From an uncultured bacterium (GTDB taxonomy: Bacteria > Electryoneota > AABM5-125-24 > Hatepunaeales > Hatepunaeaceae): a stretch of 64,000 bases of DNA. The stretch spans positions 175,903 to 239,902 of the forward strand of contig CAYLYZ010000001.1 of assembly GCA_964387885.1 (NCBI GenBank), given 5' to 3'. Shown here in pieces: positions 14,750 through 63,101 of this stretch; position 1 is the stretch's first letter, and the number at the start of each line of letters is the position of its first letter. The position numbers and the translations under genes are program-made. The notes below the pieces were generated by a model, which was given only the letters and a program-made list of their open reading frames with translations, did no database searches and was not told where the DNA came from.

Positions 14750-14751
14750 GA

Positions 14752-46410: not shown

Positions 46411-47970
46411 TCATCTCATTCGTTGAGCATCTTCACAGATCGCATCAACCAAACCGGGTACATTAAACACCTTAGCTTCCACGTCAACCTTTAAACCGAG
46501 CTTCTTAGCGAATGCTGATGTCGAAGGTCCGATAGTGGCTATTCTTGATTTTGCGGTGATCTCACGAACGAGTTCAATACCGAGAATTTCGACAAACCTG
46601 TCAACAGTTGAGCCGCTGGTAAATGAGATGTAATCGGGAGGTTGATTGCTAATCTTATCGATCCAATTTTGCTCCCATTGGGCATTTGTATTCCGGTAAA
46701 CATTTAACGTTACAACTTCAGCACCAGCCGTAGAGGACATATCCTCCACAGACTCATCAGCAAGATTACCCCGAACCCTTATCACATAAGAATCCTTAAT
46801 ATCATCCTTTTCAACAAGCGTTTCAGCCAGTCTCTTAACCAGTGCCCTGTCAGGCATCAAATCTGCTTTGAATCCCCTTTCAAGCAATTCTACAGATGTA
46901 CCGTGACCAACTGCAGCTATTTTAAATCTGCCTAACGAACGATTATCAAATCCACGAGAGATGAGCTCTTTGAAGAAATGCCTTACTCCGGCTTCACTGG
47001 TAAATACACACCAACCACCGTGATCAATTGTCTTTTCAAACTTATCCCAGCCTTTGTCATCGCTCACATGAATCAAGGAAATTGTCGGATATGGAATTGG
47101 TGTAGCACCCCGTTCACGTAATAATTCACAGATACTGCCGATTTGTTCCGCCGGTCGAGTTACCAATACGCTTTTTCCGGCAAGGGGCATTTCTTTTGCT
47201 GAAAGTGAAAATTCATCCATCCCTGTAACATCCCCGATGAAAATAAGAGCCGGGGCTACAACTTTGGCTTCTCGGCACTTGTCAACAATTTCAGATAACG
47301 GTGCACGAACTATCTGATGTATGCCTGTAGATGCATTTTGAATTACAGCGATTGATTTTTCCGGATTCATTCCACCCTTTAATAGGCTGAGGACAATCTC
47401 TTTCATCCGCCTGACGCCCATGTAAACTGCAATTGTTCCACCTTCAAGCTTTCCAATCCTTTCCCATGGAACAGGAGCCGAATCAGATTTGGCTTCACTG
47501 CCAGTCGCGAGCATCACCCAGGATGAACTCCGTCTATCTGTCAATGAAAATCCTGCGTCAGCGGCAGCAACAGATGCGGAGGTTATCCCTGGGATGATCT
47601 CATGAGGTATCCCATGCTCTTTTAAGTAGGCTGCTTCCTCGGCAACTCTTCCGAAAACCATGGGATCTCCTCCTTTCAATCGAACAACTCTTAATCCCCT
47701 TTCAGCAAGTTCACAGAGCAATTCGTTCGTTTCCCCTTGCGGTTTCGAGTGGTGTCCCGACCTTTTACCAACATAGTATCTTTTTATATTCTCAGGTAAT
47801 CCAACAACAATTTCAATCGGTATTAAATCATCATAAACAACTGCATCGCAGGAATTAAGGAGATCATATCCCAATTTTGTAATCAATCCGGGATGCCCTG
47901 GTCCGGCACCAACTAAATAGATAATTCCTTTTCCCTGTTGCTTATCCCTCACATTTCCCTCTTTCTTCAT
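46411..47970 (-). CDS. cobA: Bifunctional uroporphyrinogen-III C-methyltransferase and uroporphyrinogen-III synthase (CobA/HemD fusion).
   Basis: The N-terminal SUMT domain (GIIYLVGAGPGHPGLITKLG, VVRLKGGDPMVFGR) is followed by a ~250 aa HemD-like C-terminal domain. Confidence 0.85.
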   Translation of the reverse strand: MKKEGNVRDKQQGKGIIYLVGAGPGHPGLITKLGYDLLNSCDAVVYDDLIPIEIVVGLPENIKRYYVGKRSGHHSKPQGETNELLCELAERGLRVVRLKGGDPMVFGRVAEEAAYLKEHGIPHEIIPGITSASVAAADAGFSLTDRRSSSWVMLATGSEAKSDSAPVPWERIGKLEGGTIAVYMGVRRMKEIVLSLLKGGMNPEKSIAVIQNASTGIHQIVRAPLSEIVDKCREAKVVAPALIFIGDVTGMDEFSLSAKEMPLAGKSVLVTRPAEQIGSICELLRERGATPIPYPTISLIHVSDDKGWDKFEKTIDHGGWCVFTSEAGVRHFFKELISRGFDNRSLGRFKIAAVGHGTSVELLERGFKADLMPDRALVKRLAETLVEKDDIKDSYVIRVRGNLADESVEDMSSTAGAEVVTLNVYRNTNAQWEQNWIDKISNQPPDYISFTSGSTVDRFVEILGIELVREITAKSRIATIGPSTSAFAKKLGLKVDVEAKVFNVPGLVDAICEDAQRMR

Positions 47971-48592
47971 TCTTTTTTAACCACTCTATCCATTCCTGAT
48001 AATCCGCATCTTCTGTTGGTGCAGAGAGATAATTATCTTGATGGATTTTCGAAAACCTCTTCATCAGCTCAATGTTTGCCTCCGATGAGTTATCACTATT
48101 AATGAGCATTTTTCGAAATTGTCCACCTGTTTTAACCCACTGACCCAAACCCTGATTGTTCTCAGCAAGACGATTGCGGATATCTCTTGCTAAAAAGGGT
48201 GCTTTTCCACTCGTTGATACAGCAACAATAAGGGGATCATCCCGCCAAACCGCTGATAGCACTACTGTGCATAATTCAGGATCATCAACGACATTTACAG
48301 GTACATGCAATTCTTGAGCCTCTTCAGAAATCTGTTTGTTTACCTTTCTTGATGCTGTTGCAGCAATTATCAGATCGAATCCCCTGCAGTCTCCATCACG
48401 ATATTCTCGCTTTTCCCATTTTAATTTTTCTTTACTCGACAATTGAGAAATCGTTCGAGTTACTTCAGGAGAAATAATCGAGATTTTACAGCCTGCTTCT
48501 AAAAGCCTCTCGACTTTGTTTGATGCAACATCTCCCCCACCAACAATCAAACAAGTTATGATTTCAGTTTTAAAGAATACCGGAAGAAACAT
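47942..48592 (-). CDS. sirC: Precorrin-2 dehydrogenase / sirohydrochlorin ferrochelatase (siroheme synthase N-terminal domain type).
   Basis: It has an NAD Rossmann motif (CLIVGGGDVASNKVERLLEAGCKISIISPE) and CysG-N/Met8 domain organisation. Confidence 0.75.
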   Translation of the reverse strand: MFLPVFFKTEIITCLIVGGGDVASNKVERLLEAGCKISIISPEVTRTISQLSSKEKLKWEKREYRDGDCRGFDLIIAATASRKVNKQISEEAQELHVPVNVVDDPELCTVVLSAVWRDDPLIVAVSTSGKAPFLARDIRNRLAENNQGLGQWVKTGGQFRKMLINSDNSSEANIELMKRFSKIHQDNYLSAPTEDADYQEWIEWLKKNEERGKCEG

Positions 48593-48628: not shown

Positions 48629-49111
48629 TTAAACCGCCACAGCCACTGGAATTGGGTTCAATGTCAGGTAAATTATAAGAACAATTGCTACAATTGCAAC
48701 AAATGATCCTGCCACAATTGCAGTTTTAATGAGGGATTCTTTTACCTGTACTTCAAAAACCTCAACTTTAGTTATCGCTGAAAGATCTATCGCTACCCGT
48801 TCAGTCCTATTCTCCGGAGGATTGAAAGAAGAATCAACGAATACATGCGGGATCGTTTTCAAATTATGAGCCTTATAACCTGGTATCCGCCTGTGAATTA
48901 CACCCTTTAACTGATTGTTTTTAAAACTTACATCGGTAATTTGAAATTCACGATTCTGCCAATGTAATATTACTGTCTTTTTACTTACAGGTATACTTTC
49001 ATTAACTGGTAATCTTACAGTAGAATATGAAACACATCCATTAATAAAACATACCAGTAACACTACTGAGATAATCCCAATAACTTTATCATTTAACTTC
49101 ATGCTGAACAC
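48629..49111 (-). CDS. Hypothetical lipoprotein with a C-terminal TM anchor.
   Basis: It has a lipobox FINGCVS and a C-terminal hydrophobic segment TAIVAGSFVAIVAIVLIIYL. I recognise no domain. Confidence 0.4.
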   Translation of the reverse strand: MFSMKLNDKVIGIISVVLLVCFINGCVSYSTVRLPVNESIPVSKKTVILHWQNREFQITDVSFKNNQLKGVIHRRIPGYKAHNLKTIPHVFVDSSFNPPENRTERVAIDLSAITKVEVFEVQVKESLIKTAIVAGSFVAIVAIVLIIYLTLNPIPVAVAV

Positions 49112-49434: not shown

Positions 49435-50628
49435 TCACTCAGGAGAAGTTGGTGTGTTCATTGAATTCACGCGTCTCAGAAACTGACGATACAGACTACG
49501 AGACAGAGCCTCAAGCGCTTTTGAGTCACCCTGTCTGAAACTGTTCCTGAATTGCCCAAGAACCTCGATGCGATCATCGTCGAGTCTCTTTCGAAGTTCA
49601 GATGCACCAAAATCACTCGATTTGCGACGCCACTGTTCAAATACATCAACCTGTTCTTCAATGAGGTCTAATGCATAGGGCATTTCAACTGCTCGATCCT
49701 GCTGTACATCATCCAAATATCTTTTCAGATCATCAAGATCAAGAACTGTTACCCCTGATGCCTCTGCTACTTGCGGTTCGATATCCCGTGGAACCGCCAG
49801 GTCAACCGCTACTAATTGCCTGTTGTCACGGGGAATTGTTAAATTATCTTTAAGTACTACAAAATCGTTAGCTGAGGTTGCACTAAACAAGAGATCAGAA
49901 TTTGCAATCACTTCCGAAATATTTTCAATAGAATCTGTCAGGGCACCTACAGTGCGAGCCAATTTCTCAGCTTTGTGAACTGTCCTGTTCAGGATTGTAA
50001 TATTAACACTCTCACGGTTAAGCCTGCGAACGAGCATATCCGTTGATCTATTAACACCAATCACCGCTGCACTTAATCCGGAAATTTTTATTCCAAGAAG
50101 ATCTTTTAAAATATCAACAGCCGCACCGGCCAGCCCTTGAGCACCGATACCAATTTCTGTTTCACTTCGGATTCGTTTTGATATCTGGAAGGCATTGTGG
50201 AAAAGCTTGTGTAATCCTTTTCCAGGGCCATCAACTGAACAGGCTTCACTATAGGAGGATTTCACCTGTCCTAGTATCTGATACTCACCAAGTAATACTG
50301 AATCAAGCCCTGGTGCTACTTTAAACAGGTGTCTTGCTGCACTCGTTCCCTGACGGACAAATAGGAGTTTATCGAGATTCTTTTTATTACCGGTTATCCC
50401 TCGCGACTCATAAAAGGATGTAACACCTTCTTTTGCGTCGACTTTCTCACGATCTATTCTGTAGAATTCAATTCTGTTGCATGTTGCAAGAACAACAGCT
50501 TCAGGAGCTCCTGTTATTTCCTTAAAATCACTGGTTGCTTTTGCCAGCTCGTCCTTTTGCAATTGAAAAGGCTCTCTTTCTGACAAAGTGCAAGTATTAT
50601 GATTTATTCCACAACAACTTAAGAACAC
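49435..50628 (-). CDS. hemA: Glutamyl-tRNA reductase.
   Basis: The catalytic Cys in VLATCNRIEFY and an NADPH Rossmann motif (AAVIGVNRSTDMLVRRL) are present. Confidence 0.9.
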   Translation of the reverse strand: MFLSCCGINHNTCTLSEREPFQLQKDELAKATSDFKEITGAPEAVVLATCNRIEFYRIDREKVDAKEGVTSFYESRGITGNKKNLDKLLFVRQGTSAARHLFKVAPGLDSVLLGEYQILGQVKSSYSEACSVDGPGKGLHKLFHNAFQISKRIRSETEIGIGAQGLAGAAVDILKDLLGIKISGLSAAVIGVNRSTDMLVRRLNRESVNITILNRTVHKAEKLARTVGALTDSIENISEVIANSDLLFSATSANDFVVLKDNLTIPRDNRQLVAVDLAVPRDIEPQVAEASGVTVLDLDDLKRYLDDVQQDRAVEMPYALDLIEEQVDVFEQWRRKSSDFGASELRKRLDDDRIEVLGQFRNSFRQGDSKALEALSRSLYRQFLRRVNSMNTPTSPE

Positions 50629-50634
50629 AATTCT

Positions 50635-52344
50635 CTACGCCTTCTCATTTTGGCTTTCCATACTCGTGCTTATATTTTTAGGCATAAACAAAGCACCACC
50701 AGCCAGGATTCCAACATCACTCCATCCCGCTCGTCTTAAAATCAGAGCCGCATCCCAGGACCTACTCCCCATTTCACAGATAATCACCAATGTACACTTT
50801 TTCGGGATATCGTTAATTCTCCCTCTGAGTTCTTCGATAGGGATTTCTACATATCGATGATTTCTCTTATCGATTACAACGGTCTCTATCTCTTCAGGTT
50901 TTCTGACATCGAGGATTACCGTTTCATCTGAAAGGCTGTAAAAATCATTTGGAGAAATCAATTTAACACCGGCTGAGCGACTATTGTCTTCAATAAAAGC
51001 CATTGTGTGGAATGGATCAAATGGCTGTGAAAAGGGCGGAGAGTATGCCTGCTCAAGATCAGTTAACTTATCTATAGCCCACCCGGCATGAACAATCTGA
51101 GCTGCCTTATCTGCAAGGTGAAGGACATCACCTCTGGCTATTGCCTGCACACCAAGGATCTGTCCGTTCTTGTCATCATAAATGAGCTTGATATGGGTTT
51201 TTCCAGACTCTGGAAAATACCACAAACGATCGTGGAAAGTACCCCAGCAACTCGATATATCGTAGCCGTTCTCCCGGCAAGATGCAGAGCTCAACCCAAC
51301 CGAAGTAATTGCCAAATCAAAAAACTTCACGATAGTTACACCTGCAACAGGACCAAATCTTGAGTCACCATTGCAAATATTATCACCCGCAATTCTACCC
51401 ATCCGGTTAGCAAGAGATCCAAGAGCCCAATAGCCTGGTTTACCATCAACAGCATTGGTCATTTCAGCACAGTCACCGGCTGCGTAAATCTCCGGATCCG
51501 ATGTCTGCAATCTATCATTAACTTCGATCCCTCCAGTCACTCCGAGCTTTAGTCCTGTATCGTCAGCAAGCCTTGAGTTAGGAATAACTCCCGTAACTAC
51601 AAGAACCTTGTCAACAGTTATCGTTTCGTCTTCACCATCGGTTAGGACAAGCTTCTCACCGACTTTTTTGATCTCGCGACAATTGCATCCAAGCTTCAGG
51701 TTTACTCCCTGCTCAATCAGTTCCGATTCAACCAGTCGCGAGAGTTCTGGATCAAGGATCCCGGACATTACCTGTGATCGGAGTTCAATTAGATGTACAT
51801 CCACACCCCACATTGCACGGAAAGCTTCGCATAATTCAATACCGATGAAACCACCGCCAATAATTGCGACTGAACCTATCTTTCCTTGCTCGAGCTCTTT
51901 TCTCGTTTTAATCGCATCATTCAAAGTATGGAAGTACTCAACGCCTGGTAATGTTATTCCGGGAATGCCGGGGAGCAATGGGGATGAACCTGTAGCGATA
52001 ACCAGACGGTCATATGGCAGAGTTTTGGGCGAGTTCGATTTTAAATCGACGCAGCGAACAAACCTCGCAATTCGGTCAATCGAAACAGCCTCGTGCCCTG
52101 TTAAGATTTCAACACCTTTTACATCGTGGAAATACTTCATATCCTTGATCGTACCGGCCGGGGTTGAAATGAGATCTTTAGCCTGATCGATATCTCCGGA
52201 CAAAAAATATGCCATACCGCAAGTGGAATACCCAAAGGTATCCTCTTTTACGATAACGGTTACGTTAGCATCCGGTTGTAGACGGTGGATTCGGCATGCG
52301 GCTTTTAGACCCGCAGCCGAACCACCGATAACGATAACTTCCAT
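50635..52344 (-). CDS. CoA-disulfide reductase / NADH oxidase family flavoprotein fused to a C-terminal rhodanese domain (NADH-dependent persulfide/polysulfide reductase-like).
   Basis: The FAD motif VIVIGGSAAGLKAA and the CoADR-type redox Cys YSTCGMAY are present. The C-terminal rhodanese module has the active-site loop CEMGSRS (Cys + 4 residues + Arg; the canonical rhodanese loop is CX5R/T). Confidence 0.75.
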   Translation of the reverse strand: MEVIVIGGSAAGLKAACRIHRLQPDANVTVIVKEDTFGYSTCGMAYFLSGDIDQAKDLISTPAGTIKDMKYFHDVKGVEILTGHEAVSIDRIARFVRCVDLKSNSPKTLPYDRLVIATGSSPLLPGIPGITLPGVEYFHTLNDAIKTRKELEQGKIGSVAIIGGGFIGIELCEAFRAMWGVDVHLIELRSQVMSGILDPELSRLVESELIEQGVNLKLGCNCREIKKVGEKLVLTDGEDETITVDKVLVVTGVIPNSRLADDTGLKLGVTGGIEVNDRLQTSDPEIYAAGDCAEMTNAVDGKPGYWALGSLANRMGRIAGDNICNGDSRFGPVAGVTIVKFFDLAITSVGLSSASCRENGYDISSCWGTFHDRLWYFPESGKTHIKLIYDDKNGQILGVQAIARGDVLHLADKAAQIVHAGWAIDKLTDLEQAYSPPFSQPFDPFHTMAFIEDNSRSAGVKLISPNDFYSLSDETVILDVRKPEEIETVVIDKRNHRYVEIPIEELRGRINDIPKKCTLVIICEMGSRSWDAALILRRAGWSDVGILAGGALFMPKNISTSMESQNEKA

Positions 52345-52364
52345 GATCTTATTCTACCAAAAAC

Positions 52365-53519
52365 TCAAGCAATCGATTTACGCACACCAAGCGCAATCTT
52401 ATATAGAACTGTTATAATCCCGGCACCAAGTGCATACACAGCAAGTGTAATTGCTACTTCCGGGAATGTTGGCATATATTCTGTCACTGTACCCAATGGT
52501 GATGGGATAAATCCGGTAACAACCATTCCCATTCCTTTATCGATCCAAATGGACAGGAAAAGAATAATACATGCAAATACAAGAACGTTTTCTTTCTTTC
52601 GTGTATTTGGATTAAGTAAAAGGACTAAGGATAATACAGCCAGAACAACCGAAGCCCACATCCATGGAACTAATGCTGTTTTATCTCCGAGACCAAAAAA
52701 CATATAGGTAAAATGCGACGTATGTTCAGGCATACTGCTATAATAAGCGGTGAACAACTCCATCAGGATCAGGAATATGTTCAAACACATCGCATACGTA
52801 ACGATTAACGCAAGCTGTTGCATTGCTTTCTTACCGATATCAAATGTTGATACTTTTTTCAGCACCATCGCAATAATAATCAATAATGCTGGTCCCGCAG
52901 CAAATGCAGAAGCAAGGAATCGCGGAGCTATCACAGCACTCAACCAGAACGGGCGACCCGCCAGTCCTGAATAAAGGAACGCGGTTACCGTATGAATGCT
53001 AAAAGCCCAGGGTATTGATAGAATGATGAAAGGTTTAATCCATTTCGGAGGAGCAATCCCTTTCTTCTCTGCGTTTAGACTGAAATGGCTGATGAATACG
53101 TTTAGTATCAGATACCCAAACAAAACAACTGTATCCCAGAACATCATTGATGATGGGGACGGATGCAGAAACACGTTCGTGATCCGAAACGGCATACCCA
53201 TATCTACAAAGATAAAGGACATGCACATGATACATGCACCAATTGCAACGAATTCACCGAGAACGGTCATTTTCCCGAATGCTTTATAATTGTGGAGATA
53301 ATATGGGAGCACAACCATCACTGCAGATGCAGCGACACCAACAAGAAAGGTGAATTGAGCGATATAGAATCCCCAGGTTACATCTCTACTTAATCCTGTG
53401 ATACCGAGCCCGTAGTCAAATTGTTTCAGGTAGAAAAGTACTCCGAAACCAATGACTGCTGCGAGGGCGAAAAGCCAGACCCAATACCCTTTATTCCCAC
53501 TTAATGCTTTTTCTAACAT
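52365..53519 (-). CDS. dsrP: DsrP, the NrfD/PsrC-like integral membrane quinone-interacting subunit of the DsrMKJOP complex.
   Basis: A 384 aa polytopic membrane protein of the NrfD family, sitting directly downstream of the DsrO-type ferredoxin. Confidence 0.75.
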   Translation of the reverse strand: MLEKALSGNKGYWVWLFALAAVIGFGVLFYLKQFDYGLGITGLSRDVTWGFYIAQFTFLVGVAASAVMVVLPYYLHNYKAFGKMTVLGEFVAIGACIMCMSFIFVDMGMPFRITNVFLHPSPSSMMFWDTVVLFGYLILNVFISHFSLNAEKKGIAPPKWIKPFIILSIPWAFSIHTVTAFLYSGLAGRPFWLSAVIAPRFLASAFAAGPALLIIIAMVLKKVSTFDIGKKAMQQLALIVTYAMCLNIFLILMELFTAYYSSMPEHTSHFTYMFFGLGDKTALVPWMWASVVLAVLSLVLLLNPNTRKKENVLVFACIILFLSIWIDKGMGMVVTGFIPSPLGTVTEYMPTFPEVAITLAVYALGAGIITVLYKIALGVRKSIA

Positions 53520-53526
53520 CTAAGCC

Positions 53527-54300
53527 TCACACTATGTAGTAAATTTGAGGTTCGGTTCCAAGACCTGGCCTACGACGAATTGTAAAATTATTTTCCAGAA
53601 GCTCTCTGACTTTACTGTGAGTATCATTTAAATCACCAAAAGTCAGTGCTCCCGCCTTACAGGCATCAACACACGACGGCATTTTTCCTCTCGCCAGACG
53701 TTCCTCACAGAATGTACATTTCTCAACAACTCCGCGCATCCGAGTCGGATATTCAAGGTTGATTTTCTTCTTCAGATTGTCAGCCTCACGAGGATCGCGC
53801 CAATTGAAACTACGAGCCCCATAAGGACAGGCAACAACACAATACCGACAACCAATACATCTGTGCCAATCCATCATTACTATACCATCCTCATCCCGTT
53901 TCCATGTCGACTGAGTCGGACATGCTTTTACACAGGGCGGATTATCACAGTGGTTGCATAGGACGATTGAAGGGCCATGTAGAATATGCTCGGCAAGGTG
54001 GTCATGACCTACATCATGAAATGCCCCATGAAAACTCTCTTTCCAGATCCACTTTAATTCATCCTTCGGATTACCGAAATCTGGTACATTGTGTGTTTGA
54101 TGACAGGCATCTACGCATGCTGTACAATCTTTTTCATGGTGACATTTAGGAAGATCAATTACCATTGCCCATCTTTTACCGGATTTCTTTGATCCTTCAG
54201 GAATCTTTACCTTTGCAAAAAGATCGATGGCTGGACCAGCTGTCAAACCGACCGTACCAAGTCCGGCTAATTTAAGGAAATCTCTTCTGTCTATACTCAT
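53527..54300 (-). CDS. dsrO: DsrO, a periplasmic Tat-exported 4x[4Fe-4S] ferredoxin subunit.
   Basis: It has a Tat signal RRDFLKLAGLG and four Cys clusters (CTACVDAC, CNHCDNPPCVKACP, CIGCRYCVVACPYGA, CTFCEERL...CVDAC). Confidence 0.8.
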   Translation of the reverse strand: MSIDRRDFLKLAGLGTVGLTAGPAIDLFAKVKIPEGSKKSGKRWAMVIDLPKCHHEKDCTACVDACHQTHNVPDFGNPKDELKWIWKESFHGAFHDVGHDHLAEHILHGPSIVLCNHCDNPPCVKACPTQSTWKRDEDGIVMMDWHRCIGCRYCVVACPYGARSFNWRDPREADNLKKKINLEYPTRMRGVVEKCTFCEERLARGKMPSCVDACKAGALTFGDLNDTHSKVRELLENNFTIRRRPGLGTEPQIYYIV

Positions 54301-54680
54301 TATTTAAAGTCCTCCGGTACGATATGACACGTCCAGCAATAGGGTTTAACTCCCATATAGTTATGGCATTGGTCACAGAACTTCTCCTTGCTCGGATGAC
54401 AGTCCAGGCAAGTGTTGGTTAAACTGCGATCATACTTTTTCCCATTTGGAGCCACATGATCCCTCTCACCTTTTCGAACGACTTCTTCACGCCATTCGTT
54501 CAGCAAGTCCATGTGATAAGCAGTCATATATTCTTTTTCCATAACACATGCTTCACCTTTTGGCTTTTCAAGCTTAGGTCTTTCGGAAGACGTTCCTGTA
54601 GCCAGGTTAAGCCAAATCGGGATTGTCATGAGAACGACGAATATAATCACACCGATTACAACGTTTCTCTTATCACTCAT
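54300..54680 (-). CDS. dsrJ: DsrJ, a triheme cytochrome c.
   Basis: A 126 aa protein with an N-terminal TM/signal segment and three CxxCH motifs (CLDCH, CDQCH, CWTCH). Confidence 0.8.
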   Translation of the reverse strand: MSDKRNVVIGVIIFVVLMTIPIWLNLATGTSSERPKLEKPKGEACVMEKEYMTAYHMDLLNEWREEVVRKGERDHVAPNGKKYDRSLTNTCLDCHPSKEKFCDQCHNYMGVKPYCWTCHIVPEDFK

Positions 54681-56298
54681 CCTTATTACCCTCCTCGGTT
54701 AAGAAGGGTTCGCCACGCATATCGGTACGATCCTCCTTCTCACCTTTCATAACGAGTGCATTTCCAACAAGTTCATGTACACCTGCAACCTGTACTTCCG
54801 GAACCCAGAACTCCAATAAAGGAGGTAGGGTTGCCTTATCAATAGCGCAAACACAGGAAAGGACGTTAACACCGTGTTTTTCATGAACATGTTTGACAGC
54901 ATTTGCTCGAGGCAAACCTCCACGCATCCTCATTTCGAAGTTTTCATCGGTACCAAGTCCCGAACCACTTCCACAGCAGAATGTCTGTTCGCGAATGGTG
55001 TTCTCCGGCATTTCATGGAATTTGTTTACAACATTATTTATTACATACCTGGGTTCATCAAGCAATCCCATCGCACGAGCCGGATTACAAGAATCGTGGA
55101 ATGTAACATTCCACTGATCATTTCGGCTTTTATCGAGTTTCAGCTTATTATTTTTTAACAAGTCAGCAGTGAACTCACAAATGTGAACCATTTTCGTGGA
55201 TTTAGCATTCTCAAATACAGTACCCGTTATTGGAGACTTTGGTACTTCCATGAAGTCTGCAGGACCGTTCATCGTGTCCATATACTGGTGAAGTACTCGC
55301 CACATGTGACCGCATTCAGCACCGATAATCCACTTTACACCAAGTCGTTTGGCTTCCATATAGATTTTAGAATTCAAAGTTTTCATCATCTCGTTGGAAT
55401 GGAAAAGTCCGAAATTCCCACCCTCGGATGCAAAAGCGCTGAGGGTATAATCGAGTCCGATTTCATGGAACAATGAAAGATAGCCGAGGAATCCGAAATA
55501 GTGGGGATCGCCAAAATAGTCTGCTGAGGGTACGACAAATAGAATCTCTGCACCTTTCTTATTTACGGGAGCGTCAACTTTAATACCCGTAATATCTTCC
55601 AGATCGTCAATTGCAAAATCGACACTGTCCTGAAATCCGTGTGGTTGAATACCAAGGTGGTTTCCGGTTCTGAAGCAATTAGCTGCTGGCGTCGTGATCC
55701 AGTCAATCCCAAGTCCAAGTAACTGTAATAGCTCACGAACCATCATCGTGATTTCTGCAGTGTCAATCCCATACGGACAGAAAACAGAACATCTCCGACA
55801 CTCCGTACACTGATAGAAATAATAGAACCATTCTTTGATCACATCGACGGTTAATTCACGGCCTCCAGCCATCTTACCCATTATCTTACCGGCAAGAGTA
55901 TATTCCTTCCTGTAAATCGACCGCAGCAATTCTGCTCTGAGAACAGGCATATTCTTCGGATCACCGGAACCGATGAAAAAATGGCATTTATCCGCGCAAG
56001 CACCACAGCGAACGCAGATATCCATAAATACTTTGAGTGATCTAAATCTGTCCAAACGGTCTCGCAAACCATCGAATATTATTTGCTGCCAATTAGCTGG
56101 AAGCTGCCAATCTTCTTCATTAGTCTGCCATTTACGTGGATTCGGGAGGTCAAGATATTCTTGCGACTTTTGTATTGCAGCCCAGTTGAAAGTTCCCTTC
56201 TTATATTCGGTTTTTGGGTCTTCCCAACCTTTTTTGGAAGGAGTAAATTCTATCTGAGCTACGCTTTCTGGTGTAGGTTTTTTTTCTGACATACTCAC
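54673..56298 (-). CDS. dsrK: DsrK, the HdrD-like catalytic subunit with CCG domains.
   Basis: It has two ferredoxin motifs (CVRCGACADKC, CTECRRCSVFCP) and CCG domains (FCCGSGSG), in a 541 aa protein. Confidence 0.85.
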   Translation of the reverse strand: MSMSEKKPTPESVAQIEFTPSKKGWEDPKTEYKKGTFNWAAIQKSQEYLDLPNPRKWQTNEEDWQLPANWQQIIFDGLRDRLDRFRSLKVFMDICVRCGACADKCHFFIGSGDPKNMPVLRAELLRSIYRKEYTLAGKIMGKMAGGRELTVDVIKEWFYYFYQCTECRRCSVFCPYGIDTAEITMMVRELLQLLGLGIDWITTPAANCFRTGNHLGIQPHGFQDSVDFAIDDLEDITGIKVDAPVNKKGAEILFVVPSADYFGDPHYFGFLGYLSLFHEIGLDYTLSAFASEGGNFGLFHSNEMMKTLNSKIYMEAKRLGVKWIIGAECGHMWRVLHQYMDTMNGPADFMEVPKSPITGTVFENAKSTKMVHICEFTADLLKNNKLKLDKSRNDQWNVTFHDSCNPARAMGLLDEPRYVINNVVNKFHEMPENTIREQTFCCGSGSGLGTDENFEMRMRGGLPRANAVKHVHEKHGVNVLSCVCAIDKATLPPLLEFWVPEVQVAGVHELVGNALVMKGEKEDRTDMRGEPFLTEEGNKDE

Positions 56299-57287
56299 TC
56301 CTTCTCCAGGGGCATATCCGCCGCCTTCATTACATCACGGAATTCGTCTTCCCACTCTTCGTAGGTGTGAAGTTTTACTTTCGGATTCCATGGATTGATG
56401 TGGCGTACTTCCCTGTTATTGTTAGACATATTTCGCGTTGGACTTAAGAAAATACCGCCCATATGCATCAATTTACTCAGCGGGAAATAAATCAACAGCA
56501 CGCTCACAAGGAATAAGTGGACGAAAAATATCGCGTCAATTCCCTCTGGGATAACGGGCTGGAAGCTAAATAATCCAAGTGTAAACTGTTTTACACCGAT
56601 TATATCGACCTTGCCAAAATACCTCATCCACACACCTGTAAGGGCAATCCCTATTATAAGCAGCAGTGGAAAATAATCCGCAACGAGAGAAATGTAGCGC
56701 AGCTTAGGATCAATAATTCTTCTGAAGAACAGGACAGTTAATCCGAGCAGAAGGACAGCATCGGTCATGAATAAAATTGGCAAGCCAATTTGCATGAATC
56801 CATCAAGACTTTCCAGAAGAGGAATAAAACTGGGAACTTCCTGAAGAAAAATCTTAAAATGACGTATAAAAATCACGAGAAATGACCAATGAAAGGCAAG
56901 GGATGCCGCCCATAAAATCTTATCTGGTCCGTACACGATTTTTGGTCCCTCTTTCAGTCCTGTTCTTGTATTTCTGAACAATGATCTGAAAAACAGAACC
57001 TCTAATACCATCCGCCAGAAAACACCAGCGGTGTTATGCGGACTTTCAAGGTTATTGTTGTTAATCCATGGTAACGACTTCTGCTGCCCGCAAGTAGTTG
57101 TTATCTTGAATGGTACAGGTATCTTCGCCCATTTCAGGACACGGATGCTCATCCCGATCACAAAAGTAAGAATTGCAATGTAAGGGATTATTACTCCAAA
57201 AAGATACACCAAACCACTGACCTTGGATCCGATTAACGGAATTCCGAAGAGGATTAACACTAATATTAGGGAAATGATAAATTTCAT
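56295..57287 (-). CDS. dsrM: DsrM, a NarI-like dihaem cytochrome b membrane subunit.
   Basis: It is a ~330 aa polytopic membrane protein of the NarI/HdrE type that precedes dsrK. The ORF track started it at a TTG; the ATG 6 nt downstream (MKFIISL) is more likely. Confidence 0.75.
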   Translation of the reverse strand: MKFIISLILVLILFGIPLIGSKVSGLVYLFGVIIPYIAILTFVIGMSIRVLKWAKIPVPFKITTTCGQQKSLPWINNNNLESPHNTAGVFWRMVLEVLFFRSLFRNTRTGLKEGPKIVYGPDKILWAASLAFHWSFLVIFIRHFKIFLQEVPSFIPLLESLDGFMQIGLPILFMTDAVLLLGLTVLFFRRIIDPKLRYISLVADYFPLLLIIGIALTGVWMRYFGKVDIIGVKQFTLGLFSFQPVIPEGIDAIFFVHLFLVSVLLIYFPLSKLMHMGGIFLSPTRNMSNNNREVRHINPWNPKVKLHTYEEWEDEFRDVMKAADMPLEKE

Positions 57288-57401
57288 TAGCAATTCCCTG
57301 ATAATGAGTTATTCCGGTATATCATAATTGCCCTCAATCTCCTCAATTGGAAAGAAACCAAATCTACACTTTAGGTGCGGTTTGATTCACTTATTTCCGG
57401 T

Positions 57402-57911
57402 CTACTCCTGAGGTTCAATCAATCCTGCACGAGTCAGGAGTTTAAAATATTTTCTCTTCACCTCATTGGCTCTGATTTCGAAAGTCTTCTCACGACATGC
57501 TACATAAAGGTCAAAAGCCAACAAACAAAGGTGGTCTATTCTGTTTTCAAACGCAGTTAATTCATCGAAATCGCTTTTTTTCTCGACAAATTTAAACAGG
57601 TGTGAACGAATGATATTTTTAAGTTCAAAAGTAAAACTGATAGCTTGGGAAGGAGAGAAATCCTGTACTGATCTGATGTGTATAACTTCATCAAGTTCCT
57701 TCCTGACCAGATCCACATCCGGAGAATCCAATAATGACTCAAAAATCGTTTCGAGACACCTTGAGAGTGTATGACCTACAGGATTATGGAACCGATTCTT
57801 TTTACCTGTCAAAAACTTCAAACCGCCTTCAAGATATGAACTGAAAAGTATATTCTGCCACTCTTCAATAATTCCTTCTTTCTCTGCTCTAAGTATTTCT
57901 TTGAGCTTCAT
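57402..57911 (-). CDS. dsrT: DsrT-like protein (RsbRD-N-like small protein that commonly precedes dsrMKJOP).
   Basis: A 169 aa soluble alpha-helical protein immediately upstream of dsrM. The assignment rests on position and size more than on motifs. Confidence 0.45.
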   Translation of the reverse strand: MKLKEILRAEKEGIIEEWQNILFSSYLEGGLKFLTGKKNRFHNPVGHTLSRCLETIFESLLDSPDVDLVRKELDEVIHIRSVQDFSPSQAISFTFELKNIIRSHLFKFVEKKSDFDELTAFENRIDHLCLLAFDLYVACREKTFEIRANEVKRKYFKLLTRAGLIEPQE

Positions 57912-58180: not shown

Positions 58181-58498
58181 TCAGACACACCCGGTTGGCT
58201 TGGCAAGACCTGCAACCTTACAGGCACCCTTTGCAGGACCTGATGGGAACATGTCATATACTTCCTTGAGTGAGAATCCGGTTTCTTTACAGAGCTTGCG
58301 GATCATCGGTGCAATACCGAATTTGGCATAGTAATCACGAAGATAATTAATCATTTTCCAATGATTATCATCAAGTTCATCAACACCTTCGGTACTTGCT
58401 AATGCAAGAGCTACTCTGTCATCCCATTGTTCGGGATTTTCCATGAATCCGTCTTCATCGACATCAATTTTGACTTCATTCCACTCAAATGTCGCCAT
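58181..58498 (-). CDS. dsrC: DsrC, the sulfite reductase co-substrate / sulfur carrier.
   Basis: A 105 aa protein with a C-terminal arm ...GPAKGACKVAGLAKPTGCV carrying the two conserved Cys (CysB, and CysA penultimate). GGAGG lies upstream. Confidence 0.9.
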   Translation of the reverse strand: MATFEWNEVKIDVDEDGFMENPEQWDDRVALALASTEGVDELDDNHWKMINYLRDYYAKFGIAPMIRKLCKETGFSLKEVYDMFPSGPAKGACKVAGLAKPTGCV

Positions 58499-58547: not shown

Positions 58548-60227
58548 TTACTTCATCTCGATGTAACCACAGGGGCATGCTTCTTTACATTTATCACAAC
58601 CATTACAAAAGTCCAGTTTAAACTTGTATGGTTCACCAGGAATCAAAGGTTTAATGATAGCCTGATCCTGGCAATAACTCCAACATGTACCACAATCGAA
58701 GCAGGAACCACAGCTCATGCAGCGTTTCGCTTCTTCTATAACCGAGGCTTCCGGTAAAGTTGTGGTGATCTCTTGCCAGGGTTCTTCAAATCGTCTGTCT
58801 GGTGGCACACTCTCACACTCATTACGCAGGGCTTGCTCGTAAAAAGTAAGTATCATTCGATCCGGTGATGCCAAGGGTAATGGTTCTTTTTTCTTAAGCT
58901 CAATACCGCGGAATTGCGCGTGAATCGTTTCTGCGGCAAGTCGTCCCTGGGCGAGGGCTATAGTCACCAGACCAAGGTCCAATACGTCGCCACCACCGTA
59001 AGTTTTATCTTCTTTAGTCTTTCCCCATTCATCGACTTTTACCCAATCGCGTCCTTCATGGAGATTGTCAAGACCTTCGAAATCCGGTTCCTGTGAAATA
59101 GCCGGAATTAATGAAGTCAACTCGACAGTAAACGTATCACCCTCAATCGGCACAGGGCGTCTGCGACCTGATGAATCAGGTTCACCCAGCTCCATCTGCT
59201 GACATTCCATCCTGACAACCTTGCCATCCTCGAGCTCAAGTTTTTTTGGCGCGGCGAGGAAATGGAAGATTACGCCTTCTTCCTCAGCTCCAACGATTTC
59301 TTCTTCAATCGCGGGCATCTCATTTCTTGTGCGACGATAGAGGATTGTAACTTCCTTGGATCCAAGCCTCAAAGCAACTCTTGCAGCGTCGATGGCGGTA
59401 TCACCTCCACCGATTATAACAACCTTATCTCCGATCTCAACATGATTACCATCGGCAATTTGATTCAGAAAGCCGACTCCGCTGAAGACGTTTGGGGCAT
59501 CCTCATTTTCAAGCCAGAGCCCTTTGCCTTTGTGTGCACCGATTCCGACAAAAATCGCATCATAGTCCGATTGAACCTGTTCGTAGGGAATGTCCCTGCC
59601 AACTGCAATATTGGTTTTTAACTCAACACCGAGATCAAGAATCTTTTGGATTTCACCATCAAGAATATTATGCGGAAGACGGTATGAGGGGATTCCATAC
59701 CTGAGCATACCACCAGGTTTTGAAAAAGCCTCGAAAATTGTCACCGCATATCCCTGGCGAGCCAAATGATAAGCACAGCCAAGTCCGGCAGGTCCAGCGC
59801 CCAGAACTGCAATCTTTTCGGATTGAGTTTCATCGGTAAGTTTCTTATAAGGGAGATCCTTTTCAATTCCCCAGTCACCGATGAATCGCTCAACATTGTT
59901 GATTGCTAAAGCACCGTCTTTGCCAATTCTATTACATGCTTCTTCACATGGATGAGGGCAAACTCGTCCACATGTCGCTGGGAGAGGATTTTTCTTTGTA
60001 AGTGTTTCCCAGGCTTCCATGAATGCTTCTTCCTGGGGTCTTTCATATTTTTCTGCTTGAGCAATTGTCATCAGAACACTGCGAATCTCCGTACCTTGCG
60101 GACATGCGCTAATGCAAGGTGCTTCTTTTTCAAGCACATACGGTCGTCTTGAGCTTGTTTCACTCCCGGACGATCCACCACCACTGCGTATTACAAGTTT
60201 TTTCTTTTTCTTCTTCAGTAAGGCCAT
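58548..60227 (-). CDS. dsrL: DsrL, a GltD-like NAD(P)H:acceptor oxidoreductase with a C-terminal 2x[4Fe-4S] ferredoxin domain.
   Basis: It has N-terminal Fe-S Cys clusters (CISACPQG, CGRVCPHPCEEAC), FAD/NAD(P) Rossmann motifs (VLGAGPAGLGCAY, VIIGGGDTAIDAA) and a C-terminal ferredoxin region CMSCGSCFDCGTCWSYC...CNGCDKCKEACPCG. It lies between dsrN and dsrC. Confidence 0.75.
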   Translation of the reverse strand: MALLKKKKKKLVIRSGGGSSGSETSSRRPYVLEKEAPCISACPQGTEIRSVLMTIAQAEKYERPQEEAFMEAWETLTKKNPLPATCGRVCPHPCEEACNRIGKDGALAINNVERFIGDWGIEKDLPYKKLTDETQSEKIAVLGAGPAGLGCAYHLARQGYAVTIFEAFSKPGGMLRYGIPSYRLPHNILDGEIQKILDLGVELKTNIAVGRDIPYEQVQSDYDAIFVGIGAHKGKGLWLENEDAPNVFSGVGFLNQIADGNHVEIGDKVVIIGGGDTAIDAARVALRLGSKEVTILYRRTRNEMPAIEEEIVGAEEEGVIFHFLAAPKKLELEDGKVVRMECQQMELGEPDSSGRRRPVPIEGDTFTVELTSLIPAISQEPDFEGLDNLHEGRDWVKVDEWGKTKEDKTYGGGDVLDLGLVTIALAQGRLAAETIHAQFRGIELKKKEPLPLASPDRMILTFYEQALRNECESVPPDRRFEEPWQEITTTLPEASVIEEAKRCMSCGSCFDCGTCWSYCQDQAIIKPLIPGEPYKFKLDFCNGCDKCKEACPCGYIEMK

Positions 60228-60321: not shown

Positions 60322-61710
60322 TCAGCATCTTTTCTTGTTCAAATTTAATATTTTATATCTTTTAGCAGCCTTCTTCATACCGTCCGCCCATGCCTGGGCA
60401 CCTGATACGTGAAGGTGAAGATAACTTGCTAGCACATTACGATGTAATAAACCATCGCGTGCATCTCCTACTCCGACTCCTCTCTTCACCCTGAAAACTG
60501 TAGAAAGACTGGATTGCGTTTCAATTCTTGAATAATGAAACTCATGCCCGCGTAATTGCTGCCCCTTCTTAAAGAAGGGATTCTCTTCTTCAACCACAAC
60601 TTCTTGATAACCGTGACCCTGAGGTCGTTTGCTAATCTGAATCGAATGTTCAAATACTCCTGCCATCGGGTATGTATTGCCTTCCCAATGAATGGATTTC
60701 GAAAGGAACATTAGTCCCCCGCATTCGGCATAAATGGGCAATCCCTTTTCAGCAGCTTCTGCAACCGATTTTCGAATCGATTCGTTATCTGAAAGTCTTG
60801 CGGCATGTGTTTCCGGAAAACCACCGCCTATATAAAGAGCTTCTATATCTGGTAATTCAGTAATTTCAAATGGATTTACCGGAACGAGAGTGAAACCATC
60901 CCCGCTCAGTGCCTCAAGATTTTCCGGGTAATAGAAAGTGAAGGCACTACCGGTAAAATAACCTATCCTAATTGGTTTATCCCTCTGTGGGATAATTACT
61001 GACTGTTCAGACTGAACACCGGAAGGGATTTCAATGCCTGTGACATCTCCAGCTATTTCCGAGATTCTGTCTAAATCAACATTATCTTCAATCAACTTTG
61101 CAGACAATTCAATTGCTTTATCTGCAACCTGATTTTCTTCTGGTGTCACCAGACCTAAATGTCTGCCCGGTAACGGATCTTTTCTCATGCGGGGGATGAT
61201 TCCAAGTACTGGTATCCCCGCTTCATTTTCAACGGCATCACGAATAACTCTCGCTTGCCGTTCAGTAGCAATCTGGTTGAGAATGACTCCAGCAAAGTTG
61301 ACATCCCTGTCAAACATCTTGATTCCCATCAAGATCGCAGCTATTGTGCGTGTCACCTTAACAACGGGAATAACAATAACTACGGGAAATCCCAGTAATT
61401 TTGCCATTTCCGCCGATGAATGAGTTCCCTGAGCATTCTCCCCATCATGTAGGCCACGATTAGCTTCCATGATGTTTAAGCCATCCGTAATGACATACTC
61501 TGAGAATGATCTTAGAACCTGTCGTGTGCCCATCATCCATGTATCGAGATTATGCGCTTCCCTGCCGGCAGCCAGACGCAACCAGGCGGGATCTATGTAA
61601 TCAGGACCTTTCTTAAAGGGCATCACGGGAATTCCCTTGCGACGGTAGGCACCGATGAGCCCTAACGTCGCAAGAGTTTTCCCACTATCACCACCCGCTC
61701 CGGCTATCAT
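60322..61710 (-). CDS. dsrN: DsrN, a cobyrinic acid a,c-diamide synthase (CbiA/CobB) homolog, putative siroheme amidase.
   Basis: It has the N-terminal ATPase domain (MIAGAGGDSGKTLATLGL) and a C-terminal glutamine amidotransferase-like domain, in a 462 aa protein. Confidence 0.8.
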   Translation of the reverse strand: MIAGAGGDSGKTLATLGLIGAYRRKGIPVMPFKKGPDYIDPAWLRLAAGREAHNLDTWMMGTRQVLRSFSEYVITDGLNIMEANRGLHDGENAQGTHSSAEMAKLLGFPVVIVIPVVKVTRTIAAILMGIKMFDRDVNFAGVILNQIATERQARVIRDAVENEAGIPVLGIIPRMRKDPLPGRHLGLVTPEENQVADKAIELSAKLIEDNVDLDRISEIAGDVTGIEIPSGVQSEQSVIIPQRDKPIRIGYFTGSAFTFYYPENLEALSGDGFTLVPVNPFEITELPDIEALYIGGGFPETHAARLSDNESIRKSVAEAAEKGLPIYAECGGLMFLSKSIHWEGNTYPMAGVFEHSIQISKRPQGHGYQEVVVEEENPFFKKGQQLRGHEFHYSRIETQSSLSTVFRVKRGVGVGDARDGLLHRNVLASYLHLHVSGAQAWADGMKKAAKRYKILNLNKKRC

Positions 61711-61751: not shown

Positions 61752-62000
61752 TCAGTCGTTTGCTGAAGCTTCTTTATGAGGCAGTTCAACAAAACTGCCG
61801 CCGAAATATGTGTAAACACACTGTCCGGTATCAACCAGATTCTTCACTGCATTTTTGGCAAGTTTCTTATCAACATCCGGGTAAAGCTGCCTTACAGCCT
61901 TAACCAGATCCATTGATTTCAACTTTTTCTTTACTGCAGTTGCATCCTTGACTATTTTCAACATTGCTGCTGAAAGTTCTTCCATTGTAGGATCTGCCAT
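61752..62000 (-). CDS. dsrD: DsrD, a small winged-helix protein.
   Basis: An 82 aa lysine-rich protein whose C-terminus ...GQCVYTYFGGSFVEL matches the DsrD (E)YW/Y-SSG-S signature. It is directly downstream of dsrB. Confidence 0.75.
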   Translation of the reverse strand: MADPTMEELSAAMLKIVKDATAVKKKLKSMDLVKAVRQLYPDVDKKLAKNAVKNLVDTGQCVYTYFGGSFVELPHKEASAND

Positions 62001-62018: not shown

Positions 62019-63101
62019 TTAAAACCGCAGGTGCGTTGACCGCTTGTAGGTCAAGCCTGCATGTTTGAAGTCGTCAATATGCTCTTTTTCGAATTCAATG
62101 CCGGTCATTTCAAAGAAACGAGGCCAGCCAATCCGATCAATCCATTCACCCATACGTTCGTATGGTTGAGCATTGTCTTTCCAGGTGTAGACCAGATTCT
62201 TAATTGCTTCAACAGTCTCAGGCCAGCGTGGAGGAGTGTTGGGCAGGAACGGAATAGCGAGTTTCGAGAACATCGGCTCTTTACGTGCGTTTGACACTTT
62301 ACCACCAACCCAGATTGAAACACCGTCTGTGACGGAATCGTTCAGGGTCATTGAGGGGCAAACAGTGTAGCAGTTAGCACAGAACATACAGCGATCATCG
62401 ATAACTTCAACTGATTCGAATCCATCTACTTCTGCCGGACGAATCGCAGCAGTCGGGCAGGATGCGAGAACACTCGGGATCTCACATACTTTTTTCACAC
62501 TGTCATGTGCAACAATTGGCAAGCGACGGTGGACACCAAGGATAGCAATGTCTGAGCAGTGAACAGCACCACACATATTCAGGCAGCATGCAAGAGCGAT
62601 ACGCATCTTGGCTGGAAGATTATGACCGGTGAATTCATCAATCAACTCATCCATCACAGCCTTGACGATACCTGATGCATCTGTTGCAGCCGAGTGACAG
62701 TGAATCCATCCCTGGGTATGAACGATGTTTGAAATTGAATTTGCGGTTCCACCTACCGGGTGTCCCAAAGCTTCAATTTCTTTCTTTATGCCAGCAATGT
62801 TATCTTCATTTGTCGTCATGAACTCGACGTTATTACGACTTGTGAAGCGAAGATATCCATCGCAGTATTTATCGGCAATATCACAATATTGCCTGATCTT
62901 CTGGATCGAAAGCAATCTTGGTGAAGATGCTCTGACGGTAAAGATCTTGTCTCCGGATTCTGCAACGTGAACGTAGACACCCGGAGCGAGAATTTCGTGG
63001 CGATCCCACTTGTGATAGTTGTTTAGAATAACAGGCGGCAGATTCTCTTTAAAATGAGGCGGCCCGATATCTGTCAACCTTTTAGCAGGTTCTGCAGTCA
63101 T
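62019..63101 (-). CDS. dsrB: Dissimilatory sulfite reductase beta subunit.
   Basis: It has the siroheme/[4Fe-4S] coupling Cys cluster [16 protein letters not shown] and ferredoxin-like insert Cys residues ([12 protein letters not shown]), in a 360 aa protein. Confidence 0.9.

Follow-up and report, generated by a model that had tools for sequence, protein, structure and literature searches.

An Npsr/CoADR-RHD-type flavoprotein gene as a conserved accessory member of DsrL-2/DsrD-type dsr clusters in uncultured bacteria

The flavoprotein gene and its position

A 64,000-nt stretch of contig CAYLYZ010000001.1 (GenBank assembly GCA_964387885.1, positions 175,903 to 239,902), which originates from an uncultured bacterium of the Electryoneota and is referred to as the window below, carries a long string of genes for dissimilatory sulfite reduction (dsr) and, within it, a gene coding for a coenzyme A (CoA) disulfide reductase-like flavoprotein fused to a rhodanese domain (CoADR-RHD). 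On the minus strand the genes follow each other in the order dsrA, dsrB, a candidate divergent dsrD, dsrN, dsrL, dsrC, dsrT, dsrM, dsrK, dsrJ, dsrO, dsrP, CoADR-RHD, hemA, orf160, sirC and cobA/hemD. The CoADR-RHD gene (50635..52344, minus strand) starts with ATG and encodes 569 aa; its assignment as a flavoprotein gene of the Npsr/CoADR-RHD type is based on the open reading frame (ORF), Pfam matches, the match to the solved structure 6pfz and an AlphaFold2 model. In the public JGI annotation its product (P0001) is only 526 aa long and begins at Met44, by which the FAD motif and the redox-active Cys42 are lost; since homologues align from residue 1, the 569-aa start is the correct one.

A preliminary description of this DNA had given the same coordinates and the same length, and both stand; the strand had to be changed to minus, as the translation of 50635–52344 on the plus strand is full of stops and this reading was rejected. 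The short distances to the neighbouring genes reported there agree with the coordinates: a gap of 20 nt separates the gene from dsrP (52345..52364, minus strand; the dsrP stop ends at 52365 and the ATG lies at 52344), and a gap of 6 nt separates it from hemA (50629..50634, minus strand; the last base of the CoADR-RHD stop is 50635 and the GTG of hemA lies at 50628). From these two same-strand gaps, co-transcription of the gene with its neighbours is likely. Promoter-like motifs were fewer than in shuffled controls and terminator-like ones only about 1.5 standard deviations above them; these scans were not used, and no such element is reported for the 20-nt gap. The dsrTMKJOP-hemA string named in the preliminary description was also recovered, with DsrM, DsrK, DsrJ, DsrO, DsrP and HemA passing their family cut-offs, but its extent had been underestimated, as the string reaches from dsrA to cobA/hemD.

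Identity of the encoded protein

The protein matched the Pfam families Pyr_redox_2 (E = 1e-63), Pyr_redox, Pyr_redox_dim (2e-10) and Rhodanese. The FAD- and NADH-binding and dimerisation domains (approximately residues 1–446; 51007..52344, minus strand) hold the FAD motif GGSAAG, Cys42, the NADH motif IGGGFIG and Glu188, and the C-terminal rhodanese domain (PF00581, approximately residues 465–550; 50695..50952, minus strand) could be aligned to the rhodanese cysteines of the Archaeoglobus fulgidus and Shewanella loihica enzymes (AfNpsr and SlNpsr). The best solved relative is the A. fulgidus persulfide reductase (6pfz, E = 2e-105, residues 1–553 aligned), followed among the PDB matches by the Desulfovibrio vulgaris protein 3iwa (E = 2e-88), which is without a rhodanese domain, and by 3nta, 3icr and 8a56. 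An AlphaFold2 model built from 28 homologues (predicted local distance difference test, pLDDT, 91.3; predicted template modelling score, pTM, 0.87) was superposed with Foldseek on 6pfz over its full length (template modelling score, TM, 0.92/0.97, root mean square deviation 1.7 Å, 553 columns), and TM values for the model against 6pfz, 3nta, 3icr and 8a56 were in the range of 0.86–0.92.

The redox cysteine Cys42, which lies in YSTCGMAY (codon 52221-52219), aligns with Cys42 of AfNpsr and Cys43 of SlNpsr and is invariant in both the 28-sequence and a 43-sequence alignment. The rhodanese cysteine Cys523, in the six-residue CxxGxR loop CEMGSR (VIICEMGSRS; codon 50778-50776), aligns with C519 of AfNpsr and C531 of SlNpsr, and both catalytic cysteines were kept in 40 of the 40 full-length orthologues collected. 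The nucleotide-binding motif IGGGFIG is followed by HLIE188L, in which E188 corresponds to E183 of AfNpsr; all clade members carry Glu or Asp at this position. The authors of the AfNpsr study held E183 responsible for the exclusion of NADPH and described a lid loop that covers the CoA pocket as a peculiarity of AfNpsr which the bacterial structures lack; this loop is conserved across the clade of dsr-linked proteins. Because the NADPH-excluding Glu is conserved, we predict that NADH rather than NAD(P)H is the reductant. Bona fide CoA-disulfide reductase was considered and rejected as an assignment: the protein scored 320 bits with TIGR03385 (cut-off 579) and 306 bits with NF007123 (cut-off 458), and since it falls below these equivalog cut-offs it is filed under Npsr/CoADR-RHD. 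By its sequence and predicted fold the protein is therefore a member of the Npsr/CoADR-RHD flavoproteins. The Pfam matches, the alignment and the predicted fold bear out what the preliminary description had proposed, namely a CoADR/Nox-type core with its cysteine in YSTCGMAY and a C-terminal rhodanese domain with CEMGSR, and the alignment that it had called for, against characterised Npsr/CoADR-RHD proteins, places both active-site cysteines and gives nothing that speaks against the assignment. The family of persulfide/polysulfide reductases to which it had assigned the protein is likewise right; its NAD(P)H dependence has to be narrowed, the conserved Glu predicting NADH and not NADPH.

Among the known members of the family, AfNpsr (NoxA-3, 6pfz) is the closest, sharing the two-domain architecture, both catalytic cysteines, the lid loop, the NADPH-excluding Glu and 36–37% identity (TM 0.92/0.97), and it also comes from a sulfate reducer; it differs in branching outside the dsr-linked clade, and its gene is presumably not adjacent to dsr genes. 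The S. loihica PV-4 Npsr (3nta) and the Bacillus anthracis CoADR-RHD (3icr) have the same fold, Cys43, the rhodanese cysteine and a proposed swinging-CoA mechanism, but only 28–30% identity, and neither stands in a dsr context; the Shewanella enzyme moreover is without the lid loop, owing to a six-residue deletion, and has a more open CoA pocket. The Enterococcus faecalis CoA persulfide reductase (CoAPR, 8a56) has the same architecture, requires both cysteines and provides a precedent for the clearance of CoA persulfide at high sulfide, whereas its identity is 28% and its gene belongs to a CstR-regulated cst-like operon with sulfurtransferases and not to respiratory genes. The D. vulgaris Nox (DVU3212) and 3iwa, a homologue from the same species, share the flavoprotein core with the redox cysteine and are also from a sulfate reducer; 3iwa lacks a rhodanese domain and falls outside the dsr-linked clade. 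As far as biochemistry is concerned, AfNpsr was reported to reduce persulfides and polysulfide but not disulfides and to use NADH only, and its authors considered its role in a sulfate reducer a puzzle or oddity and did not identify it, A. fulgidus being unable to respire sulfur (PMC7969121). In vivo, a persulfide forms on the rhodanese cysteine of the E. faecalis enzyme, which removes CoA persulfide during sulfide stress.

Conservation of the dsr linkage

To characterise the gene's context in relatives, loci were searched in one genome per species with patterns derived from the clade alignment, which gave 43 loci onto which the window proteins were mapped. For the neighbour counts all non-redundant informative loci were fetched and neighbours within 600 nt were scored, 49 loci being informative upstream and 44 downstream. 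The upstream neighbour of CoADR-RHD was dsrP in 36 loci, dsrC in 3, sat in 1 and another gene in 9, so that dsrP or dsrC stood directly upstream in 39 of the 49 loci. Downstream, hemA was found in 28 loci, qmoC in 6, sirC in 2 and other genes in 8. The labelled taxa were Calditrichota, LCP-89, Zixibacteria, Bacteroidota/Ignavibacteriales, Fibrobacteraceae, Krumholzibacteriia, Acidobacteriota/Thermoanaerobaculia and 'Deltaproteobacteria'; the placement of CoADR-RHD in dsr clusters is thus conserved in uncultured bacteria of at least eight phyla, and its adjacency to dsr genes is not due to chance. This synteny in relatives had been named in the preliminary description as a check, and the conservation across phyla gives no ground for abandoning the linkage.

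The surroundings of the gene varied between lineages. In four Fibrobacteraceae/Krumholzibacteriia loci CoADR-RHD follows dsrC (dsrABNLC, CoADR-RHD, hemA), and in LCP-89-type loci it stands between dsrP and qmoC-qmoA-qmoB-sat. The usual order is aprBA-qmoABC, unlike the qmoC-first order seen here. Among six LCP-89/Zixibacteria-type loci (L012-L017) qmoC came after CoADR-RHD in 6/6, and in the only one of them that was annotated (L016, 11738-18052) it was followed by qmoA-like and qmoB-like genes and sat, forming a single dsr-to-sat supercluster. Two apparent fusions in this group (ORFs of 987 aa in L014 and 963 aa in L015) were rejected, as the extra part is a separate qmoC gene. In one Calditrichota metagenome-assembled genome (MAG) the gene, seemingly unlinked, follows hppA and sat. 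A string of the KSB1 type (L040, 1-8991; L011) holds on one strand dsrC, dsrM-like and dsrK-like genes, an ORF, a Rieske protein gene, a split cytochrome b, two ORFs of no recognised kind (one of 532 aa) and, at its end, CoADR-RHD, an arrangement in keeping with a DsrMK module that is coupled to a complex of the bc type. The locus L099, with a dsrABLNCTMKJOP string that is typical in other respects, has only a partial CoADR-RHD match, 728 nt after dsrP (14516-15184), which may be a decaying copy.

The converse analysis started from DsrK and was blind to CoADR-RHD. It covered the best 80 of at least 589 metagenome loci, with DsrK proteins 67–83% identical to that of the window; the set hence represents relatives of the window, and canonical Desulfobacterota are probably unsampled. 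Fifty-three loci were informative, i.e. contained dsrP followed by at least 1.5 kb of sequence. CoADR-RHD followed dsrP in 11 of these 53, and it is accordingly not a feature of most dsr clusters. Among the loci with dsrL the count was 8/15, and among those without dsrL and with at least 5 kb of upstream sequence it was 0/14 (Fisher's exact test, p = 0.002, uncorrected for relatedness). Because it is present only in part of the dsrL-containing clusters, CoADR-RHD is an accessory and not a core gene, and it is an accessory gene of clusters of the DsrL-2/DsrD type.

We found no description of a linkage between CoADR-RHD and dsr genes in open-access papers and preprints, in line with the statement of the preliminary description that the gene is not a described member of dsr operons; a description elsewhere is possible. 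In the accessible parts of the dsr-cluster studies Neukirchen 2023, Thiel 2019, Hausmann 2018, Loffler 2020, Flieder 2021, Klier 2024 and Diao 2023 and of the D. amilsii proteomics study, CoADR-RHD is not mentioned. Npsr was listed for Calditrichaeota bins that also carry Dsr genes, the linkage being unremarked (Vigneron 2021), and homologues of Nox adjoin sulfite reductase genes in two Firmicutes (Chhabra 2011). The conserved dsr context of CoADR-RHD thus appears to be undescribed. DsrL, DsrN, DsrD, DsrT and DsrEFH are comparable to it in being conserved inside the dsr clusters of some lineages only, and DsrL is, like CoADR-RHD, a pyridine-nucleotide-dependent flavoprotein, but the CoADR-RHD sequence is unrelated to all of them.

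Phylogeny and co-divergence

In a neighbour-joining tree the dsr-linked genes formed one clade, with AfNpsr, the Shewanella Npsr, D. vulgaris 3iwa and unlinked homologues outside it; within the clade, only the gene of locus L030 was truly unlinked. The dsr-linked proteins therefore constitute a new clade of a known enzyme family. Pairwise distances of CoADR-RHD were correlated with those of DsrK and DsrP (Mantel tests, r = 0.75 and 0.55, respectively; p about 5e-4), a co-divergence at least as strong as that of DsrK with DsrP (r = 0.50), while CoADR-RHD evolves about twice as fast as these two proteins. In comparison with the nearest orthologue, pN was 0.085 and pS 0.76 (saturated), and the base composition resembled that of the neighbouring genes. 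CoADR-RHD has co-diversified with the dsr genes.

Pairing with hemA

In relatives the junction between CoADR-RHD and hemA often measured -27 to +20 nt and was tighter than the junction with dsrP, suggesting translational coupling; the coupling of CoADR-RHD to hemA is at least as tight as that to dsrP. The pair also occurs on its own. The orthologue P0094 of the Ca. Thermonerobacter MAG MS-B_bin-24 has retained both cysteines, and its gene adjoins hemA at a distance from any dsr gene. The pair at L124 (8001-10915; Ca. Thermonerobacter-like MAG), with a gap of 30 nt between the two genes, is remote from every dsr gene. Thiel et al. published a diel metatranscriptome in which the Ca. Thermonerobacter orthologue is JGI24185J35167_100001238 and the next gene, JGI24185J35167_100001239, a glutamyl-tRNA reductase. 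The sheet that lists the former directly precedes 'Cluster C Day time' and by its order and size is Cluster B, with approximately constant expression; dsrAB are found far further down, at a place that fits the strong night-time cluster, and Cluster C holds the oxygen-protection genes. CoADR-RHD and hemA of Ca. Thermonerobacter are apparently in different expression clusters, the sheet of hemA being deduced from its position in the file. The roughly constitutive transcription of the orthologue fits a housekeeping role.

Composition of the gene cluster

All genes of the cluster lie on the minus strand. At its upstream end the window cuts dsrA, of which the C-terminal part is present (63172..64000), and dsrB follows (62019..63101; TIGR02066, 494 bits). 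The next ORF (61752..62000, 82 aa) stands in a dsrB-dsrN gap in which such an ORF is kept in the other loci. By itself it gave no Pfam, NCBIfam or PDB match, and a match to DsvD (1ucr, E = 3e-8) was obtained only with a mixed profile that contained canonical-looking DsrD sequences; its identification as a divergent DsrD, which rests on sequence comparison, is not certain. It reads 'VYTYFGGSF' where canonical DsrD has 'YWSSGSTT', a variant that is conserved in the cluster type with dsrL and CoADR-RHD, and DsrD may be under-called in these lineages, as the standard Pfam and NCBIfam models miss the variant. The ORF is followed by dsrN, coding for a siroheme amidase of the CobB family (60322..61710), and by dsrL (58548..60227; NF009410, 575 bits), which is of type 2 by its YRR motif (ILYRRTRNE). 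The YRR motif defines DsrL-2 and predicts specificity for NADP(H) (Loffler 2020). With YRR in DsrL and the divergent DsrD, the cluster has the marks of the DsrL-2/DsrD or reductive type. It thereby contains two pyridine-nucleotide flavoproteins of opposite predicted specificity, DsrL for NADPH (YRR) and CoADR-RHD for NADH (Glu).

DsrC (58181..58498; TIGR03342, 113 bits) has both cysteines of the C-terminal arm (...GACKVAGLAKPTGCV). The gene in the dsrT position (57402..57911) encodes an RsbRD_N domain (PF14361, 3e-15), and its position upstream of dsrM is conserved in the loci. The membrane complex is encoded by dsrM (56295..57293; NF038037, 510 bits, cut-off 300), dsrK (54673..56298; NF045796, 731 bits, cut-off 400), dsrJ (54300..54680; NF038038, 158 bits, cut-off 100), dsrO (53527..54300; NF045797, 307 bits, cut-off 200) and dsrP (52365..53519; NF045798, 461 bits, cut-off 350). 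Beyond CoADR-RHD, the string continues with hemA, coding for glutamyl-tRNA reductase (49435..50628; TIGR01035, 265 bits, cut-off 210), orf160 (48629-49111, 160 aa, no family match), a sirC/Met8-like gene with a CysG N-terminal domain (47942..48592; TIGR01470, 140 bits) and a cobA/hemD fusion of uroporphyrinogen-III methyltransferase and synthase (46411..47970; TIGR01469, 254 bits; NF004593). With a GC content of 35% (27% at third codon positions) against 42–46% in its neighbours, hydrophobic stretches at both the N- and the C-terminus and no counterpart at this place in L001, the closest relative, orf160 is probably a recent insertion. Outside the cluster, housekeeping genes were annotated between 23 and 46 kb of the window, and the region of 1–23 kb was listed as ORFs only; a thioredoxin reductase gene (39527-40471, plus strand; TIGR01292 above cut-off) about 6 kb past the end of the cluster is probably an unrelated housekeeping gene.

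Discussion

CoADR-RHD is a long-standing accessory member of the DsrL-2 plus DsrD cluster type. As to its function, our analysis leads us to favour, with a confidence somewhat short of even, a role in the NADH-dependent reduction of small sulfane-sulfur species that arise around Dsr, by which their sulfur would be salvaged as H2S. The links to the DsrC trisulfide cycle and to polysulfide respiration that the preliminary description had suggested are hypotheses. We infer the chemistry, the bound CoA, the co-transcription and the physiological substrate, and picture them as follows. The protein would be a homodimeric, NADH-using FAD persulfide/polysulfide reductase of the Npsr/CoADR-RHD type, its gene probably sharing a transcript with dsrTMKJOP and/or hemA. 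Sulfane sulfur would first be taken up as a persulfide on Cys523, which lies on the surface of the rhodanese domain, the pantetheine arm of the bound CoA would swing this sulfur to Cys42 beside the flavin, and NADH would reduce it via FAD, setting H2S free. The conserved lid loop, which helps to form the CoA pocket, supports the predicted binding of CoA indirectly. The substrate would be sulfane sulfur formed where an active Dsr pathway brings sulfite, sulfide and thiols together, with small persulfides such as CoA persulfide, or polysulfide, as candidates, and the cell would benefit by the protection of CoA- and cysteine-dependent enzymes and by the return of stray sulfur to the pathway as H2S. 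Several points weigh against this proposal. The tight and often overlapping junction with hemA is left unexplained by a role in sulfane-sulfur metabolism. The Ca. Thermonerobacter orthologue, which is unlinked there, is not co-regulated with dsrAB. A general clearance of sulfane sulfur predicts a wider spread than the 11/53 DsrK-anchored loci and 0/14 loci without dsrL, counts that refer to linked copies only. Finally, the conservation of gene order could in part reflect lateral spread of the whole island and not selection for adjacency.

A less likely alternative is that the protein is a direct component of the Dsr pathway, its rhodanese domain taking zero-valent sulfur from the DsrC trisulfide or persulfide for reduction by NADH in a branch that would run parallel to DsrMKJOP or complete it and, together with NADPH-dependent DsrL-2, would form a largely cytoplasmic route from sulfite to sulfide. 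The position directly after dsrP (36 loci) or dsrC (3 loci), the restriction to dsrL-carrying clusters (8/15 vs 0/14), the co-diversification with DsrK, the two arm cysteines of the window's DsrC and the function of the family's rhodanese cysteine as a sulfur acceptor are all in line with this idea. Use of a protein-bound persulfide, however, is known for no Npsr; the lid loop, which limits the access to AfNpsr to small substrates, is conserved here; DsrMKJOP is complete in every linked locus, leaving nothing to replace; and the predicted nucleotide specificities of DsrL-2 (NADPH) and CoADR-RHD (NADH) differ.

We regard it as improbable that the protein serves as a polysulfide or elemental sulfur (S0) reductase for respiration or disproportionation, as the reductive branch in organisms able to grow on S0 or polysulfide as well. 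Sulfur respiration was the role originally proposed for Npsr, AfNpsr reduces polysulfide well, and clusters with DsrL-2 are known from sulfur reducers and disproportionators, Desulfurella among them, but a soluble, NADH-driven reaction by itself conserves no energy and A. fulgidus, with its active Npsr, cannot respire S0. The cultured DsrL-2 sulfur reducer D. amilsii has a different cluster, and no such enzyme is named in the accessible part of its proteomics paper, while the DsrD, sat, qmo and hppA linked to CoADR-RHD point to sulfate or sulfite reduction.

Still less weight can be given to a function as an NADH electron-input module delivering electrons to adenosine 5'-phosphosulfate (APS) reductase, DsrAB or DsrC, in the manner of the rhodanese-less D. 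vulgaris Nox. This model draws on the report that Nox (DVU3212) passes electrons from NADH to APS reductase, on the Nox homologues that adjoin sulfite reductase genes in some Firmicutes, on the position of D. vulgaris 3iwa beside the dsr-linked clade and on the sat or qmo neighbours in some loci. It leaves the strict conservation of the rhodanese cysteine without a purpose, as this residue is not needed for electron transfer alone, and a pull-down with D. vulgaris Nox gave no partners from energy metabolism.

Two further roles have, in our estimation, little chance of being correct, and about equally so. The first is oxygen defence, with the protein acting as an NADH oxidase that guards the oxygen-sensitive Dsr and siroheme machinery. 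AfNpsr does have NADH oxidase activity, its relatives are Nox/Npx enzymes and oxygen defence is the function ascribed to D. vulgaris Nox, yet persulfides outcompete O2 in AfNpsr and the conserved rhodanese cysteine is not needed for O2 reduction. The orthologue of Ca. Thermonerobacter lies outside the day-time cluster of oxygen-protection genes, which argues against a dedicated role of this kind. The second is a helper function in siroheme and haem synthesis, in which the gene would belong with hemA, sirC and cobA/hemD and, for example, protect the catalytic cysteine of glutamyl-tRNA reductase from persulfide formation when the cytoplasm is sulfidic. Such a function would account for hemA directly following in 28 of the 44 informative loci, often with an overlap of 9–27 nt, and for the persistence of the pair away from dsr in Ca. 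Thermonerobacter. No role in tetrapyrrole synthesis is known for an enzyme of this kind, however, and the downstream gene is qmoC in 6 loci; in L005 the preceding gene is sat, and the approximately 0.8 kb of contig downstream showed no hemA, and even in Ca. Thermonerobacter the gene and hemA apparently belong to different expression clusters, as far as the file position of hemA indicates.

That an ordinary cytoplasmic persulfide or disulfide reductase was caught in an ancestral dsr island and spread with it without any functional tie would be consistent with the high similarity of Dsr proteins across phyla (DsrK 67–94% identical), which fits lateral spread of a whole island, but is very improbable given that the linkage survives rearrangements on both sides (dsrP, dsrC or sat upstream; hemA, qmoC or sirC downstream) and persists down to 35% protein identity under purifying selection, with a co-divergence the same as that of bona fide dsr genes. 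A shared-nucleotide loop during disproportionation, in which DsrL would make NAD(P)H and Npsr consume it, was ranked low because the predicted specificities differ (NADPH for DsrL-2, NADH for CoADR-RHD). A route from thiosulfate via a rhodanese persulfide to H2S and sulfite was also considered; by textbook redox potentials it is uphill with NADH.

Implications

Dissimilatory sulfite reduction is of ancient origin and stands at the centre of the sulfur cycle, and its set of proteins (DsrABCDEFH, L, N, T and MKJOP) is regarded as almost complete. Many newly found carriers of dsrAB, among them Acidobacteriota, Calditrichota, Zixibacteria and Ignavibacteria/Kapabacteria, have DsrL-2 together with DsrD, and the direction of their pathway and their electron donors are debated. 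CoADR-RHD adds to these clusters a concrete and testable NADH-linked handler of zero-valent sulfur and offers a lead on the presence of an active Npsr in the sulfate reducer A. fulgidus. If the enzyme did act on DsrC, it would be an unrecognised protein of the Dsr pathway, providing uncultured reducers of at least eight phyla with a soluble, pyridine-nucleotide-dependent way of reducing sulfite to sulfide, as a bypass of DsrMKJOP or a supplement to it, and the retention of an active Npsr by sulfate reducers such as Archaeoglobus would be explained. In metagenomic surveys npsr is counted as a marker of sulfur or polysulfide reduction; in these lineages it may instead report sulfite or sulfate reduction.

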